The notes under the pieces are model-generated. The model saw only the letters and a program-made list of their open reading frames with translations, was not told where the DNA came from and made no database searches. This document shows, in pieces, positions 50,186 through 57,518 of a DNA stretch of 58,262 nucleotides. The stretch comes from a virus (taxonomy: Duplodnaviria; Caudoviricetes), in IMG/VR virus record IMGVR_UViG_3300044259_000151, positions 1 through 58,262 of that record; one strand, written 5' to 3'. Made by a program: the position numbers and the translations under genes. Positions within the stretch are counted from its first letter, which is position 1. Each line of letters begins with the position of its first letter.

Positions 50186-51568
50186 TCAGCCGCGGGTGGC
50201 GAGCGTGACGAACGGCGACAGGGTGTTCGCGCCCTTGTAGGGCGTCAGCGGCGCGTGCCAGATCGGCCGGCCATCGACGCGATAGGTGATGCGGAACACC
50301 ATTTCGTCGGTCAGGAAGGCAACGTGCATGGAGGACGCCATGTTGACGCCGCCCTTGTCGGCCAGAGAGTACTGGCCGAAATCGACCAGCGAAATGTCGC
50401 CTTCCGTGCCCAGCGTATCGGCATATTCGACCGGCATGACCGGGCGCCCGAACAGCGTCCCGTAAGGCTGTCCCGAAATGCCGTTGGCCGGCAGATAGAC
50501 CGGCACACCGGCGGTCCCGATCACCTGAGACATCGAATACAGCTGCGGCTCGACATCCTGATTGATCAGCCACATGGAGTTGGCGCGCGACCGCGCCCAC
50601 ATGCGAGACCACATGTCGAGCACGTTGTCGTAAGTGATGGTCTTGGCCGTCTGCCCGGTTCTCTTGGCGACGGCAACCTTGGCCGGCGAGTTGAGGAAAC
50701 CAAGCGGCATGCCGCCGCCCGAGCCGCGGAACATCGCGTCCTCGGTCATGAACGCGATTTCCTCCGAGAATGCCTGGGTGGCGATTGTGCTCATCACGGA
50801 GGCATCGGCCATCAGTTCGTCGGAAACATACCAGTTGGCCATCAGCTTCTTCAGGTCGAGCTCGACCAGACGGAACTTCGGCTTGCTGCGCGTGGCTGCG
50901 TCACCTTCACCGACCCAGTAGGACTGGACGCCACCCCAACGGCTGCCGGTGGCGCGGCTGGTTTCGTCGACTCCGGGGATCTTGATACCGTTGGCGGCGG
51001 TGGACAACGACAGTTTCTGGGCCTGGCTCATGATCTGGCCCATATCGTAGGCGCGGGCGAACACAGCGGTCGCGAAATCGGTCTGCACCAGGAAGCCGCC
51101 GGCGGACGGATCGACTTCACCGGCACCCGTTGGCGCGCGCTGCAGGCGAGGGTCCATGCGACCAGGGTCGCGCGTAAGGTAATAGTTGGCAACGGCGCGC
51201 AGCTGTTCGCCGAAAGAGCCGAAATGCTGCTGCGGATCCGGCGTGAAATTCAGGGTCGAACGCACACCGCGGATGTAATCGTCAGCGGACCAGGTCTGCC
51301 GCACCGAGCGCGACGCAAGATGGTCCAGCGAAAAGCCGGTCGGGACGGTGATTGCGGTCTGTTCATCGCCCGTTCCGCCGGTGGCCGGACGCGCCAGCGA
51401 CGCCGAGCGCGCGCGCGCCTTGGTCAGGCGGTCGATCTCACCCTGCAGGTCCTCGATTTCCTTTTCCTTGGCGGAATACTTGCCAGCGTCACGCACGAAT
51501 TCATCCGTGCCCAGCTGATCGACAGCCCTGCTCAGGGCCTGGCGGAGTTCGGTCAGTTTATCCATCAT
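50186..51568 (-). CDS. Major capsid protein, HK97 fold with N-terminal delta domain
   Basis: AGGFLV, WVGEG, SDELM.D, G.G.G.PLG, TLFGRPV, FR..YRVDG.P. Confidence 0.95.
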   Translation of the reverse strand: MMDKLTELRQALSRAVDQLGTDEFVRDAGKYSAKEKEIEDLQGEIDRLTKARARSASLARPATGGTGDEQTAITVPTGFSLDHLASRSVRQTWSADDYIRGVRSTLNFTPDPQQHFGSFGEQLRAVANYYLTRDPGRMDPRLQRAPTGAGEVDPSAGGFLVQTDFATAVFARAYDMGQIMSQAQKLSLSTAANGIKIPGVDETSRATGSRWGGVQSYWVGEGDAATRSKPKFRLVELDLKKLMANWYVSDELMADASVMSTIATQAFSEEIAFMTEDAMFRGSGGGMPLGFLNSPAKVAVAKRTGQTAKTITYDNVLDMWSRMWARSRANSMWLINQDVEPQLYSMSQVIGTAGVPVYLPANGISGQPYGTLFGRPVMPVEYADTLGTEGDISLVDFGQYSLADKGGVNMASSMHVAFLTDEMVFRITYRVDGRPIWHAPLTPYKGANTLSPFVTLATRG

Positions 51569-51682
51569 ATATCTCCTTGTGACGGATGAGCCGCGCATGC
51601 GGCAATGTTCCCGCGCCAGGTGGCTGCGGATCTCGGTGGTGTGCGATGTCGGGATACGTGGCGCGCTGGACGCGCAAACAGG

Positions 51683-53326
51683 TCAGGCGGTTGCAGCAAC
51701 CGCGATGCGGAGTTTCATGGCCGCCGCGCGGCGAAGGCGAATGGCGCGCTCGGTTTCGTCCGCATCAACAGCATCACTTTCCTCCGGGGCGCTCTTTTCC
51801 AGAAGTTCGCGGATCATGCCGCATCCGCGGTCGATCATGTCATGCGCTTCATGGAGCATCGCGGCGTTGTCTGAGGAAAGCATCTTTCCGGCGCGGGCCA
51901 TGGATGCGCGAGCGCGATTGCGCAGCAGAGAAACCGCACGGCTGCGGCTGGTGGCCGCATCATCGGTTTCTTCAGCCGGGCCAAGCATGGCAGCCACTTC
52001 TTCGCCGACCAGCTGGACCAGGACCTCACCCAGCGCAGCCTTGATGACCATCAGCTCATCCGGGATCACGGTTTCCTTTTCACGGTATTGCTTTTCCCAG
52101 TCGATATCCTGCTGCACGCAATCGAGGTCGCACAGCACGCTGGCCAGCCAGCTGACATGGTACATGGAGCGCTTGAATTCCTCGATCGTCATTGTGGTTC
52201 CTTTTGATGGTGCGCGCGCTGAAGGCGGGAATTCAGCCTCGACAAGATCGTCACCCCACCCATCGGAAATTTCTTCAAAGCGCTCGGGCCCAAGAACGAT
52301 TGGGCCGTCATAGGCAACCACGTCCGCCGGGGCATCGCGATAGGTGAGCGTCACATGCGGGTGATATTCGGCGAAATCCCACGAAGCGCCGGCATCGCGG
52401 ATTTCCTGCCAGCGAGAGGCAAGGGCGTCGCTGCGGAAGCGCAGCACCTTTGCGCCACCATCGCCGAGCGGCGTGACGGTTCTTGCATCGTCGCGTTCGA
52501 CGGTCAGCTCATCGTCACTAGGCGTCAGACTTGACCAGTCCAGAGGCTCCCGGCTGTAGGCGACGGTGACGTGCATATCCTCGCCGGGCAGCGAGCTGGC
52601 GAAGCCCGCATCGCGCATCCATGACCGGATTTCATCGTGATTAACCACCGGCCGCGATACGTACAAGGTCTTGCCGGATGCACGCTTTCCGATGGGCATG
52701 CGAGCCGCGCGGCGCAGATTTTCAACATCTGCACGCGCCATCATCATCATGCCGCCTTCATCGAGAATGCGGCCTGCCCAATCGAAAATCGGGCTTGTGT
52801 CGATGCCATTGGCGCGGGCCGTCACAAGCGCCGTCGGGAGGGATGGAACGGGCACCTGCGAAATTTCCATCAGGTCCACCAATTCGAAGTCAACGCCGCC
52901 AGGGCGTGATTTGTCGTTGGCAAGACGCCATTTCAGCGGGTCCCATGATACCGAGGTGGCATTGAGATAACCCTCCCTGACCATCTGAAAGATGGTGTCG
53001 GCAAAGGGATAGATTTCCCGGTCCATGTATTCCACGGACCCGGAGAGTACGCCATCGCGCTGCACGAGATCGACGACACGGCCAATCGGCGGCTGCGACA
53101 GATCATGGGCCCAGAGAAACACCGGGTTCCGCAGGTAGTTATCCAGAGTCCAGGCAGCGATCGTGTGATTGTCGCGTGCGACCGACGGGTCGGAAAACAG
53201 ATAGCGGATGATCCGGCCATTGCTGTTGGCAAGATCGACCTGACCAGCGGCACGCATGACGGCGGTCTTTTGCGGGGGCGCACTGGTCACTGCCTGCCGC
53301 GCAAAATCGTCAATCGTGATGGTCAT
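51683..53326 (-). CDS. HK97-type prohead protease with an inserted 2H-phosphoesterase (Acb1-like) domain and a C-terminal helical domain
   Basis: NPVFLWAHD...PIG, GYLNATSV, LMEISQVPVPS.P.A protease motifs; then TLYVSR...HVTVAYS...HPHVTLTY...LGPE.FEEI. Confidence 0.9.
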   Translation of the reverse strand: MTITIDDFARQAVTSAPPQKTAVMRAAGQVDLANSNGRIIRYLFSDPSVARDNHTIAAWTLDNYLRNPVFLWAHDLSQPPIGRVVDLVQRDGVLSGSVEYMDREIYPFADTIFQMVREGYLNATSVSWDPLKWRLANDKSRPGGVDFELVDLMEISQVPVPSLPTALVTARANGIDTSPIFDWAGRILDEGGMMMMARADVENLRRAARMPIGKRASGKTLYVSRPVVNHDEIRSWMRDAGFASSLPGEDMHVTVAYSREPLDWSSLTPSDDELTVERDDARTVTPLGDGGAKVLRFRSDALASRWQEIRDAGASWDFAEYHPHVTLTYRDAPADVVAYDGPIVLGPERFEEISDGWGDDLVEAEFPPSARAPSKGTTMTIEEFKRSMYHVSWLASVLCDLDCVQQDIDWEKQYREKETVIPDELMVIKAALGEVLVQLVGEEVAAMLGPAEETDDAATSRSRAVSLLRNRARASMARAGKMLSSDNAAMLHEAHDMIDRGCGMIRELLEKSAPEESDAVDADETERAIRLRRAAAMKLRIAVAATA

Positions 53327-53769
53327 TGCGCGGTATCCTCCGCAATGGTTGCGGACAGCATCCATGCCCACTTCTTGTGCGCATCCATGCGTTCCTGCAG
53401 GTAATTGCTCAATCCCCGCTCCAGCTGAATGGTTGCTCGCCGGTCGGCCTCACCCAATGCATTAACCACGGCAGCATTGGCATCAATCAGTTCGACAATC
53501 ATGGCGGCGGTTGTCGGAATGCCGGCGAACGTGATGGATGCCGGTGCTGCAATCTCATCGAGCGACGCTGGCGCCATGGCATTGAGCGTGCGGATCCGTT
53601 CGGCCAGGCCGTCAACAGCGCCATGCGCATCCTCGTAAATGTCGCCGAACAGTTCGTGCAGCTGCGGGAAAAGCGGGCCCCGCACGTTCCAGTGAAAACT
53701 GTGCGCCTTGAAATACAGGCACCAGGTTTCGGCCAGCGCCGTCCTGATGGCAGTCAACAGCTCATCCAT
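53323..53769 (-). CDS. dps: Dps-family mini-ferritin
   Basis: KAHSFHWNVRGP.F..LHELF...Y......D.LAERIRTL...H.K..WML; AGGAG RBS; overlaps portal and protease. Confidence 0.93.
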   Translation of the reverse strand: MDELLTAIRTALAETWCLYFKAHSFHWNVRGPLFPQLHELFGDIYEDAHGAVDGLAERIRTLNAMAPASLDEIAAPASITFAGIPTTAAMIVELIDANAAVVNALGEADRRATIQLERGLSNYLQERMDAHKKWAWMLSATIAEDTAQ

Positions 53770-55189
53770 ACACATACTCCTTGTCGCGCAGGAAAGACGA
53801 GCCACCGGCCGCACGAAGACGGCGCGAGATTTCCTCAAGGGCAACGTCATCGTGGCCATGGCGCGGGGCAGCGGCTGCCTTTGCTGCCGTCACGGCCGGG
53901 CCACGCGCCGCAGATTCCTGCTTGCTCGGTCGGCCAGCGTCATCAGGCGCCGTTCCCGTGGACTGGCTGCCCGACGCCGCCATATTCTGCGGGAAATGCA
54001 ATTTGGCGGCCTCGCCGCCTTCCGGGCGCATGCCAAGATCAATGCGGGCCTCATCCGGCGTTGCCATCATTGACATAATCATGGTGCGCCAATTGTTGAC
54101 GCGCGCCGTCATGTCGGCCGTCGTCAGTTCGCGGTAATCGAAATCGATCGAACGACCATCACGCCACAAACCGAACGTGCTTTCGATTTTCCGGCTCCAG
54201 CGGTTGGTGTAACCGGTCAGCGTGTAGTTGACATATTCCTGCGACTGCTGACCGATGTTGTTGTTGGTCGAGCGGTCGAGAATGCCGACCATGTGCATCG
54301 GCACCCGGAAAATGCGCACGACATCCTCAAGCTGAAACTTGCGGGACGCGATGAATTCCAGATCGGCCGATGTCATTTCCAGCGCCGAGAATTTCACGCC
54401 CTGCTCAAGCACCGCAGTTTTGCCAGAGTTCTGCAACCCACCGAACATCGTTCGCCAGTCTGAAGACATGCGTTCGGCGGCGCCCGGCGACAGTTTCTGG
54501 TCCGTCATCAGAATGCCGGACGGCTTGGCACTGTTGCCCATCCAGCGGGCTGCCTGCTGTTCCTGCGCGATCGACAGCCCGATGGCCTCGCGCGCGACCG
54601 AAATGCGCGACACACCCAGAAGCCCATTGAGCGAGAAGCCGCGAATATGCAGCATGTCGCCATCGGGAATGAGAAATGGCTGCCCGGCAAGTTCCGAGCG
54701 CAAATGCAGGCCCTGTGGCGTGACGCGGTAGAACAATCCGCCGTCCGGGGCTTCCCACAGAGCGACCCAATCCGCATTGATCGGGACAAGCTTGATGGGA
54801 TATCCGCGCCGATCGCGCACGATCACTGAATAGGCATTGCCCCGCAGCACAAGGCTGATTTGTTTCTGTTCCCGGTACTCCAGCCCGTTCTGCCAGTCGT
54901 TCGGTTCCTGCAACAAATCCGACAGGTAATGCGCACGATCTTCGACCTTGCTGCCATCGTCCAGGCGCTGGTTCACCGACCATGGCAGTTTTGCCACATC
55001 CTCGGCCAGCATTGTGACGCAGGCCAAAACCGCAGACGCGCTCAAGGCGGACTGCTGATTGACCGCGACCCCGGTAACCGACGGGGTGGAAAACACAGAG
55101 TCCTGCCACATCCGCGGGTCATCCATGCTTTCGGAGCCCGAGCGGCTGTTTGCCCCGCGCGCGATGGTGCCAAAGATGCCACGCGCCAT
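53762..55189 (-). CDS. Portal protein, HK97 family
   Basis: AVLACV..LAEDVAKLP, EPNDWQ, LRGNAY, MLHIRG, AVLEQG, RIFRVP. Confidence 0.95.
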   Translation of the reverse strand: MARGIFGTIARGANSRSGSESMDDPRMWQDSVFSTPSVTGVAVNQQSALSASAVLACVTMLAEDVAKLPWSVNQRLDDGSKVEDRAHYLSDLLQEPNDWQNGLEYREQKQISLVLRGNAYSVIVRDRRGYPIKLVPINADWVALWEAPDGGLFYRVTPQGLHLRSELAGQPFLIPDGDMLHIRGFSLNGLLGVSRISVAREAIGLSIAQEQQAARWMGNSAKPSGILMTDQKLSPGAAERMSSDWRTMFGGLQNSGKTAVLEQGVKFSALEMTSADLEFIASRKFQLEDVVRIFRVPMHMVGILDRSTNNNIGQQSQEYVNYTLTGYTNRWSRKIESTFGLWRDGRSIDFDYRELTTADMTARVNNWRTMIMSMMATPDEARIDLGMRPEGGEAAKLHFPQNMAASGSQSTGTAPDDAGRPSKQESAARGPAVTAAKAAAAPRHGHDDVALEEISRRLRAAGGSSFLRDKEYVYG

Positions 55190-55377: not shown

Positions 55378-57180
55378 TTATCCGAAAAACAAGAGGCCGC
55401 GATCGGCGGAATAGGCAAGAGCCTGCTGGTAGGGCTCCGGGTTCTTCACCATGACCGTCGCCGCGTTGAACAGCGCGATGGCCGGGTCAATCTTGGCGTC
55501 ACCCGCCGTCTGCTTGGTCGCGCGGATGGCGGTCGCCGTGGGCTCGATTTTCAGGTTGGGCACACACCAGCGCATCAGCGGGCCACCGGTGTGCAGCAGC
55601 ATGCCATTCGAGAGACCGCGCTCGCAGGTCTTGATCGGGTTCATCAGGGCAAAACCCTGCGGCACGCCGACAAGCAGGCCATTATCCTGCGTGATATCCA
55701 CATCCGGCGCGGCCATGGCCTCGACGAAATCGCCCAGGCAGGCAGGGTCAACGGCGGTGGCGGCCAGCAAATCCCTGTCTTTCACCAGACGGATGATTTC
55801 GATGATGGCGGCAATATCCTCGAGCGCCGTATCGAAAATCGTCAACTGGCCGGATTTCTGAATATCCAGCAGGATCGGCGCAATTTTCTTGCGCCGCTTG
55901 AGCACGTCCCGGTGGCAAAACGCATGCGACCAGGCAAGCCAGCGCTTTCTGGATGCACGGCCGCCCATCGGAAACATTTTTCCGGTAAGTTCGACTTCAT
56001 CCTGTTCGCGGCCGAGGACGCAAAGACCGAACAGGTCATCCAGGCCACCGCCATCAATGCCAACGACCGCGACTTCGCAACGGTCAAGCAGCCGATCCAG
56101 CGCCTCGAAATGCGGCAGGGCGGCCAGTTCCGGATCTTCCGCCCGGTCCCAGTAATCCGAGCCGACCCAGCGGTTGGCCCGGTTGCGCATGCCGATTTCG
56201 ACATTGAGGTGCTTTGCCAGAAAGCTCTGGACGGTGTCCCGCTCCTCATCCGCGCCGGAACGCACGTTCTGGAATTTCCGCTCCAGCCAATCCTGGCGCA
56301 CCGATCGCCCCATATTGGGGTTGGTGATGTACCAGTTGGCCGGGTCGAGATAGGCCTCGTTTTCCAGCATCGCATCCGGGAACTCGTAGAGTACCGGCAG
56401 GGAGGCTGGATCGTCGATCTTGCCATCGCGAACATCGCGAAAATAATCCAGCTTTTCCTTGAACACGCCGGCCGGAGGCTCATCCGATTGCGTGGTGATG
56501 TAGATGACGAACCCTTCCGGGCGCGAAATCAGGCCGCCGGTGGCCTCCTGCAACATCGCGCTGGCGCCGGCTTTCTTGCCAAACAGCCACAGCTCCTCGA
56601 CCAGAACGAACGCAGCTTTCTTGCCCGAGGCCGTCTTGCTGTCTGCCGACACAACCTTCAGGACCGCGCCGGTCAGTTCGTGCGTGATCTGCTTCAGCTG
56701 ATCCTGCACGCGCAGCAATTTTACCAGCTCCGGATCCGCGCGCACCATGGCGGCCGCCGGCTTGAAACTGTTGCCAGCCACCTCCTGCGTGGGGGCCAGG
56801 ATCAGCAGTTCCTGATGATGACGCCAATTGCGGATGAGCGCCGTCAGCATGATGCCGGCGGCGATGGTGGACTTGATGTTCTTCTTCGAGATGAGGAGCA
56901 TGAACTCCTCAATGTGCCGTTTGGCATTCGCTGCATCGTAGGCGCCGAAAATGGCGGCCACGAAATCAAACACATAGGGCTCGCAGACTTCGCCGAATGT
57001 CGGGTGCCGGTGGCGCTCCAGCCTGCGATCGTAGAACTGTGGCAGGTCGCAGATCTGCAGGTCGCGGAACACCGATAACGCCGCCTCAGCCTCGTCGGGA
57101 AACAGAGGCTCAAACGGGATCAGGCTTTCGCGCGCAACGATGCGGCGCTCCCAATCCGGGCAGGCGGTTGTCCAGCGCAT
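55378..57180 (-). CDS. terL: Terminase large subunit
   Basis: WTTACPDW, KKNIKS Walker A variant, VEELW Walker B, ITTQS, GIDGGGLDDL, KIDP. Confidence 0.95.
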   Translation of the reverse strand: MRWTTACPDWERRIVARESLIPFEPLFPDEAEAALSVFRDLQICDLPQFYDRRLERHRHPTFGEVCEPYVFDFVAAIFGAYDAANAKRHIEEFMLLISKKNIKSTIAAGIMLTALIRNWRHHQELLILAPTQEVAGNSFKPAAAMVRADPELVKLLRVQDQLKQITHELTGAVLKVVSADSKTASGKKAAFVLVEELWLFGKKAGASAMLQEATGGLISRPEGFVIYITTQSDEPPAGVFKEKLDYFRDVRDGKIDDPASLPVLYEFPDAMLENEAYLDPANWYITNPNMGRSVRQDWLERKFQNVRSGADEERDTVQSFLAKHLNVEIGMRNRANRWVGSDYWDRAEDPELAALPHFEALDRLLDRCEVAVVGIDGGGLDDLFGLCVLGREQDEVELTGKMFPMGGRASRKRWLAWSHAFCHRDVLKRRKKIAPILLDIQKSGQLTIFDTALEDIAAIIEIIRLVKDRDLLAATAVDPACLGDFVEAMAAPDVDITQDNGLLVGVPQGFALMNPIKTCERGLSNGMLLHTGGPLMRWCVPNLKIEPTATAIRATKQTAGDAKIDPAIALFNAATVMVKNPEPYQQALAYSADRGLLFFG

Positions 57181-57197
57181 GCGCGGTATGACCTTGG

Positions 57198-57518
57198 TCA
57201 GGCGGCCGGCTGGCTCTGCTGCCACAGAGATTGGCGCAGCAAGTATCCCTCAAAAGCCCAAATCTTGTTGCGGGCATTGTCGCGAGCGATCTTGCGGCCG
57301 ATCTCTTGATCAAAATTTTCCGGGCTGGCGGCCGCACTTTCCCCAGTCACGCAAAAGCCGTTCTGCAGCGTCAGGCAGCACACCGTTAGCGTCGTTCCGT
57401 GGAAAACATGGTATTGCTCGCCGGCAATCTGCGCGTCAATCAGCTCCGGCGTCAGCCGCGGCGCCTTCAAGCCCTTGGCCTGAATTTCCGCCTCGATGGC
57501 CTGTTCATCTTTCACCAT
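57198..57518 (-). CDS. Gp49 / Sf6 gp66 family protein (candidate nucleotide-signal sponge)
   Basis: APRLTP..ID..I, LTVC.L.LQNGF.VTGESA.ASPENFD.EIGRKIA..NA..KIW..EGY.L. Confidence 0.85.
   Translation of the reverse strand: MVKDEQAIEAEIQAKGLKAPRLTPELIDAQIAGEQYHVFHGTTLTVCCLTLQNGFCVTGESAAASPENFDQEIGRKIARDNARNKIWAFEGYLLRQSLWQQSQPAA

Follow-up and report, generated by a model that had tools for sequence, protein, structure and literature searches.

The closest described relatives of the gene considered here come from two bodies of work on phage 2H phosphoesterases. The first is the definition of Acb1, an enzyme directed against CBASS (cyclic oligonucleotide-based antiphage signalling), by Hobbs et al. 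(2022), who assigned it an HxT/HxT catalytic tetrad; the activity of T4 Acb1 appears from approximately 15 min into infection, and the T4 gene adjoins ipI. The second is the analysis of Iyer et al. (2017), which finds 2H domains in the polyvalent proteins of phages as well as on MuF and portal domains, cites Alt, notes C-terminal assemblin-like peptidases in polyvalent proteins, argues that polyvalent proteins are packaged and injected, and suggests that their 2H domains might degrade defence nucleotides. The gene examined here lies on the minus strand of IMGVR_UViG_3300044259_000151, a complete virus record of 58,262 bases (CheckV 100%) that was analysed over its whole length and is called the window below. 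At 51683..53326 it encodes a 547-aa protein in which an Acb1-family domain is inserted in frame between the core of a prohead protease and a helical C-terminal domain.

Prohead proteases have themselves been connected with CBASS. The Hobbs and Kranzusch 2026 preprint reports that they activate CD-NTases via cleavage of a loop, which puts in print a link that had been stated in an earlier note on the window (the original prediction), and its discussion describes CBASS as firing late. In the Richmond-Buccola 2023 preprint, CBASS escape mutations are reported in the "scaffolding prohead protease" of T1-like phages, a protein composed of an N-terminal protease and a C-terminal helical scaffold, and the scaffold alone induces CBASS toxicity. 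Literature searches found no description of Acb1 on a protease or a portal. The words fused, portal, capsid, prohead and virion do not occur in the main text of Hobbs et al. (2022), the supplements of which may list fused homologues; neither "fused" nor "fusion" occurs in the accessible text of the 2026 preprint; and in the searched passages of the paper on cyanophage Pam3 the word "phosphoesterase" does not occur and the 2H/Acb1 domain of the portal is not mentioned.

Translation of 51683-53326 on the minus strand gives 547 residues with no internal stop, from an ATG at 53326 to a stop codon at 51683-51685, and GGAGG lies 10 nt upstream of the ATG. The protein has three parts: a prohead protease core (residues ~31-211), an Acb1 domain (residues 216-359) and a helical C-terminal domain (residues 384-547). 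The same layout, with the motifs kept, is found in two homologues that begin at the same Met in the alignment, P0002 from an NCBI Rhizobium genome (83% identical) and P0003 (61%). Logan contigs from two sediment-metagenome runs span 51600-53400 unbroken and with 0 differences, at depths of 28 and 24; since the record may itself derive from both runs, the contigs show only that a second assembler yields the same join. No RNA dataset is present among the sequencing runs listed as holding the sequence. As far as these data go, an artefact is excluded and the fusion is real, and the in-frame insertion into a prohead protease that was originally proposed is borne out by the open frame and by alignment with insert-less homologues. 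A related-locus search with the single protein returned no match in genome contigs or viral contigs. An alignment query returned 80 related loci, in which the matches cover the protease core and, in L004, the one locus that was opened, the core and the tail.

The Acb1 domain (52250..52681, on the minus strand, like all features given below) carries both motifs of a 2H active site. The first, H252-V-T254 (52565..52573), aligns to the first HxT of the FBB1 Acb1 structure 7t26 in invariant columns, and the second, H324-V-T326 (52349..52357), to its second HxT in nearly invariant columns. They are located where the original prediction had put them, in HVTVAYS (His252 at 52571-52573) and HPHVTLTY (His324 at 52355-52357), within a domain that it had placed at 52258-52672 (residues 219-356), bracketed by TLYVSR and LGPERFEEI and with a helical region downstream. 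The Pfam Acb1 model (PF23474) covers residues 219-359 with profile positions 1-143 of its 144 (E 5e-35; 120.8 bits, cut-off 27), and a profile search of the genome places the domain at the same spot (E 1.2e-37, 124.3 bits). Eleven columns are invariant in a 33-sequence alignment of the domain, including R225, W236, H252, T254, S258, G313, G346 and E348; the window row is part of that alignment, so these residues are present in the window domain by construction. The PHROG label for the family of the domain is "RNA ligase".

Structural comparison gives the same assignment. A domain-only AlphaFold model built from the 33 sequences has a mean predicted local distance difference test score (pLDDT) of 94; it was used instead of the full-length model, in which the Acb1 part reaches a pLDDT of 30-55 because only three alignment rows cover it. 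Foldseek puts Acb1 (7t26/7t27) first, with E 2e-9, template modelling (TM) scores of 0.77-0.81 and 27-28% identity to the solved proteins, and Escherichia coli LigT (5ldm) fifth, with E 3e-5. The fold is nearer to Acb1 than to LigT, CPDase or Usb1, and the domain is thus of the Acb1 type that was originally named rather than of the LigT type. The next-best fold after Acb1 is a phosphodiesterase of Burkholderia phage BCSR5 (PDB 9q2y/9q2g, in open and closed lid states), which provides the third match (9q2y_B, 2e-6). When sequences in the PDB are searched with phmmer, FBB1 Acb1 (7t26) is matched at E 7e-10 with both HxT motifs aligned, and the best match is residues 456-614 of the cyanophage Pam3 portal (8hds), at E 1.8e-22. 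The alignment to 7t26 passes through ...GPERFEEISDGW; Trp357 and Glu residues lie opposite ...REYSEELDLEW, and the residue numbers of Hobbs et al. (2022) could not be reconciled with the chain numbering. With its active-site signature and Acb1-like fold, this is an intact Acb1-family 2H domain.

Residues ~31-211 (52694..53236) are, judging by homologues and profiles, a prohead serine protease core of the HK97/S78 type. Pfam S78 (PF04586), with 20.4 bits for a cut-off of 21, and TIGR01543, with 30.9 bits (E 2.5e-7) for one of 59, both fall short, and the PHROG matches of the core are to head-maturation protease and major-head/protease families. A search with the whole protein matched 215 database proteins, and 120 listed among these form the homologue survey used here. 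Over the core, many of the 120 show 50-66% identity; these carry PF04586 and go by the name HK97 family prohead protease. A hidden Markov model (HMM) of the core matches all 120. His74 (53105-53107, in WAHD) and Ser125 (52952-52954) are invariant in 29 homologues and are the putative catalytic residues. The core has a pLDDT of 80-92 in the AlphaFold model, and its highest-ranking Foldseek matches, to T4 gp21 and herpesvirus assemblins, are weak (E 6.5e-3). The gene is also located between those for the portal and the major capsid protein, as expected of an HK97/S78 prohead protease.

The C-terminal domain (residues 384-547; 51686..52177) is common to the insert-less homologues and is made up of long helices, predicted at residues 389-546 with a pLDDT of 66-83. 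Pfam and PHROG scans found no family for it, and an HMM of the tail matches 102 of the 120 homologues. By likeness to the T1-like scaffolding prohead protease, the tail is probably a scaffold or docking part. Lambda C/Nu3 and P2 gpO are scaffolding prohead proteases too. Within the tail, the motif RAGKxLSxxNxxxLxxAH (residues 478-495; 51842-51895) is invariant or nearly so across 29 homologues, and RAGKxLS recurs in other contexts in P0229 and P0038; at a guess, the motif is a docking or self-cleavage element. A complex prediction for residues 1-135 of the capsid protein with residues 380-547 gave a score of 0.00, which is evidence neither way. The linker between the Acb1 domain and the tail (residues 360-383; 52178..52249) is variable in P0001-P0003 except for Met379, the ATG of which (52190-52192) is preceded by AAGGA at 52199-52203 with a spacing of 6. 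This is the sole Shine-Dalgarno pentamer among the 21 internal in-frame ATGs of the gene (background 10/134), and the Met is kept in both P0002 and P0003. A tail-only (scaffold) product might conceivably start there. Lambda C/Nu3 is a precedent for a separate scaffold product.

In a 10-sequence alignment, the insert is flanked on one side by the conserved LRRAAKMP and on the other by the helical tail; at this site, the linker of insert-less homologues is short and variable. Across the 102 listed homologues with both flanks, the core-tail linker has a median length of 38 aa and is at least 129 residues long in approximately one quarter. The comparison of proteases with and without the insert that had been suggested shows Acb1 to be one of several additions: an Acb1 HMM matches four of the 120 homologues (P0001-P0003 in the linker, P0038 at the N terminus), and a different insert of ~130 aa occupies the same linker slot in 24 of the 120 (within P0004-P0118). 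These 24 are mutually homologous, share the pattern DWKxGAxRxLP...WDGxAA...SYKxPxA...AAASRLPQTD and belong to no Pfam family; the insert is also found in a Methylocella metagenome-assembled genome (L004:4959-6671), and an Atlas search with it returns only unnamed viral clusters. It may represent a further cargo domain or a regulatory one. Five of the 120 (P0004, P0005, P0007, P0010 and P0100) have an N-terminal extension of ~185-210 aa of no known family, in the position where P0038 has Acb1, and for this extension the Atlas search gave no usable match. The protease thus has two slots that take extra domains, the N terminus and the linker.

Relatives of the window Acb1 domain are mostly embedded in larger proteins, namely portals, head proteases, MuF and polyvalent proteins. 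A phmmer search of 1.84 billion representatives gave 1972 matches at E 1e-3 or better. The best 150 include 140 new proteins, of which six are below 200 aa and 113 are at least 300 aa long. A Pfam scan covered 137 of these 140 nearest representatives, all but the three largest. Head proteases are represented among the 137 by Peptidase_S78_2 (18), DUF2213 (10) and Peptidase_S78 (3), and the DUF2213 proteins match a PHROG head-maturation protease family at E 2e-130. Portals of three families account for a further 24, MuF for 13 and ART-PolyVal for 10, and GNAT, NUDIX, InPase, ParB-like and polyvalent-protein domains are also among the partners; capsid, tail and terminase families are absent from the families listed for the 137. 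A second search, of proteins of 300-958 aa, gave 105 matches, 73 of which are portals according to precomputed Pfam assignments (38 PF06381, 30 PF06074 and 5 PF04860). The others are four S78 proteins and three of the window type, seven S78_2, four DUF2213, one MuF and 13 without a partner family.

Acb1 is N-terminal on five of eight S78 proteases and in the linker on three. In P0229 (513 aa), the S78 core is followed by the RAGKxLS motif and then by Acb1, and in P0302 (608 aa) ART-PolyVal, Acb1 and an XkdF-type protease at the C terminus are joined in a single protein. A maximum-likelihood tree, quickly built from 106 domains, needs 16 partner-family changes, with S78-linked domains in three places; its strongly supported branches, taken alone, are compatible with a single origin of the S78 label. 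Portal-Acb1 fusions occur in cultured phages, including phiPSA1 and its relatives, Rhizobium phages RHEph04-06 and the RHph series, Synechococcus phages and Pam3, and in NCBI at least one portal fusion bears the name "anti-CBASS protein Acb1 family protein". Of the phage-collection records that match four protease-Acb1 queries, none covers 80% or more of its query (0/773, 0/688, 0/631 and 0/358), and the protease fusion was found in no cultured phage.

The recognised carriers are all located inside the procapsid, and ART of the polyvalent type travels with Acb1; capsid-interior targeting is therefore the simplest common explanation. The reading preferred here, to which we give a probability of roughly one half, is that a scaffolding-type prohead protease took up Acb1 between its core and its helical tail as an anti-CBASS cargo targeted to the capsid. 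The protease-scaffold would then be one more carrier, with the insert in a cargo-tolerant linker. The protease-Acb1 protein would be built into the procapsid like its insert-less relatives, bringing tens of Acb1 copies into the head. The protease would then cut the linkers flanking Acb1, and the folded domain of ~16 kDa would stay with the DNA and enter the next host in the manner of T4 Alt and IPI*. Those two proteins are directed to the core of the prohead; the head protease trims them, and they are injected along with the DNA. Before assembly, the protease-Acb1 protein could, while still in the producing cell, degrade CBASS signals (3'3'-cGAMP, cA3-type) late in infection, the phase in which the protease itself may trigger CBASS. 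The original prediction had the phage fusing the antidote to the trigger, with the domain either released by autoproteolysis or packaged in the head. Packaging in the head is the part that fits the evidence best; the part in which the fusion is owed to the protease as trigger is a conjecture, for the domain is joined at least as often to portals and MuF and accompanies an ADP-ribosyltransferase (ART) in polyvalent proteins.

Several points weigh against capsid-targeted cargo. Of the partners recognised in the 137 nearest representatives, head proteases are the most frequent (at least 31, against 24 portals), and this excess could point to a protease-specific reason. Packaging, cleavage and injection are all steps that we infer; digestion and loss from the head are the normal fate of HK97-type proteases, and no protease cleavage sites in the linkers could be inferred. 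Early delivery is not obviously needed, because T4 Acb1 acts from ~15 min (Hobbs et al. 2022) and CBASS activation comes late (Hobbs and Kranzusch 2026 preprint). The substrate range is a prediction from sequence, and the base-stacking and adenine-contacting residues of Hobbs et al. (2022) are not placed on the window sequence with certainty.

A reason specific to the protease could be that the antidote is tethered to the trigger. The fusion would then have been selected as CBASS cyclases sense the prohead protease or scaffold; each cytosolic trigger molecule would bring the signal-destroying enzyme with it, in a 1:1 ratio and with the same timing, and packaging would be irrelevant or incidental. 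This would fit the activation of CD-NTases by prohead protease cleavage (Hobbs and Kranzusch 2026 preprint), the escape mutations and scaffold toxicity of the T1-like protein, which has the same backbone layout as the window protein (Richmond-Buccola 2023 preprint), and the late action of T4 Acb1. It would also fit the joining of three protease families (S78, S78_2 and DUF2213, in at least 31 of the 137 representatives) to Acb1, and the three positions of Acb1 with respect to S78 cores: at the N terminus, within the linker (the window trio) and after RAGKxLS (P0229). However, the same domain has non-protease carriers in portals (73 of the 105), MuF and ART-bearing polyvalent proteins, and ART likewise rides on a protease in P0302, so the protease has the appearance of a general carrier. 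Nor do the well-supported branches of the tree force a second origin of the S78 label. As the whole explanation, tethering is possible but somewhat unlikely.

The cargo and tethered-antidote readings are not mutually exclusive. A scaffolding prohead protease that is sensed by CBASS could act as a self-neutralising trigger by virtue of bearing Acb1, while the packaged fraction is injected and leaves the next infection pre-armed. This combination is an unlikely one, offered as speculation.

It may be instead that the 2H domain has another role, acting on 2',3'-cyclic phosphate RNA ends, on signals resembling 2'-5' oligoadenylates or on the cA3 of type III CRISPR, or serving as an RNase. RNase or 2'-5' oligoadenylate roles were proposed for the 2H domains of polyvalent proteins by Iyer et al. 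(2017), and the "RNA ligase" label in PHROG, the identity of 27-28% to solved Acb1 and a head-fused clade whose activity is so far a prediction would all leave room for them. Set against these are the full-length match to the Acb1 model, the placing of solved Acb1 ahead of LigT, CPDase and Usb1, and the cleavage of 3'3'-cGAMP and cAAA by nine of nine further Acb1 homologues tested (Hobbs et al. 2022). A substrate outside CBASS is accordingly a doubtful proposition, and one to which we give little weight. That an assembly or frame artefact joined two separate genes is negligibly probable, given a frame open across 547 codons, a layout that recurs at 83% and 61% identity in P0002 and P0003 and contigs from two runs that cover the join with 0 differences.

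The gene belongs to a minus-strand late operon with the order large terminase (55378-57225), portal (53762..55189; phrog_12 portal protein, E 2.8e-99), ferritin/Dps-like gene, protease-Acb1 gene and major capsid protein (50186..51598; phrog_10 major head protein, E 6.8e-43), and with tape measure and tail fibre genes farther downstream. The ferritin/Dps-like gene runs from 53323 to 53769 or 53859, with 53769 the likely start, and matches Pfam Ferritin (E 5e-16) and phrog_3636, "DNA binding protein". It overlaps both of its neighbours, its start with the portal stop and its stop with the protease ATG (ATGA), and a Dps-like protein amid a head-assembly operon is unusual. No SMODS/CD-NTase match is present in the window record, which is uninformative because the record is that of a phage and not of a host.

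If Acb1 does lie inside capsids, counter-defence against nucleotide signalling would start at DNA entry, and virion proteomes would have to be interpreted as anti-defence arsenals; work on anti-CBASS enzymes has until now dealt with them as free proteins expressed late. The link to proteases bears on the 2026 claim that CBASS senses head proteases, and the window protein is a natural construct in which trigger and antidote are separable by simple mutations (Ser125, and His252/His324). Should the self-neutralising trigger be correct, protease sensing by CBASS across many hosts would have left its evolutionary footprint in the repeated, independent joining of Acb1 to head proteases of three unrelated families. 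The other domains held in the two cargo slots, at the N terminus and in the linker, are candidates for new anti-defence activities.

Compared with T4 gp57B and the Acb1 of Erwinia phage FBB1 (7T26/7T27), the window domain shares the 2H fold, the two HxT motifs and the full-length PF23474 match, and these proteins are its best structural match. They are stand-alone proteins of ~150 aa, however, whereas the window domain is internal to a head protease, is 27-28% identical to them and has a predicted function. The portal and MuF 2H fusions (Pam3 portal gp3, PDB 8HDS, and those of phiPSA1, RHEph04-06 and Synechococcus phages) belong to the same domain clade and have a carrier in the head interior; their 2H domains are appended, whereas that of the window is inserted mid-protein and its carrier is a protease. 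The T1-like Bas13 scaffolding prohead protease has the same combination of an N-terminal protease and a C-terminal helical scaffold-like domain. Bas13, lambda C/Nu3 and P2 gpO differ in having no known enzyme cargo between these parts, and for the window tail the scaffold role is a likely one only by analogy.

T4 Alt and IPI* are anti-host or anti-defence proteins with the mode of action proposed for the window cargo, but they depend on a short targeting peptide rather than on fusion to the protease and are unrelated in sequence. The window protein may work like a minimal version of the polyvalent proteins of Iyer et al. (2017), which unite several conflict-related domains in a single polypeptide of a phage or plasmid; with one effector domain and an N-terminal peptidase it is not a typical member, whereas P0302 does fit the polyvalent layout. 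Acb1 and 2H domains borne by head proteins are already known; new, within the literature searched, are the mid-protein insertion site in a protease and a link to proteases that is recurrent and broad.

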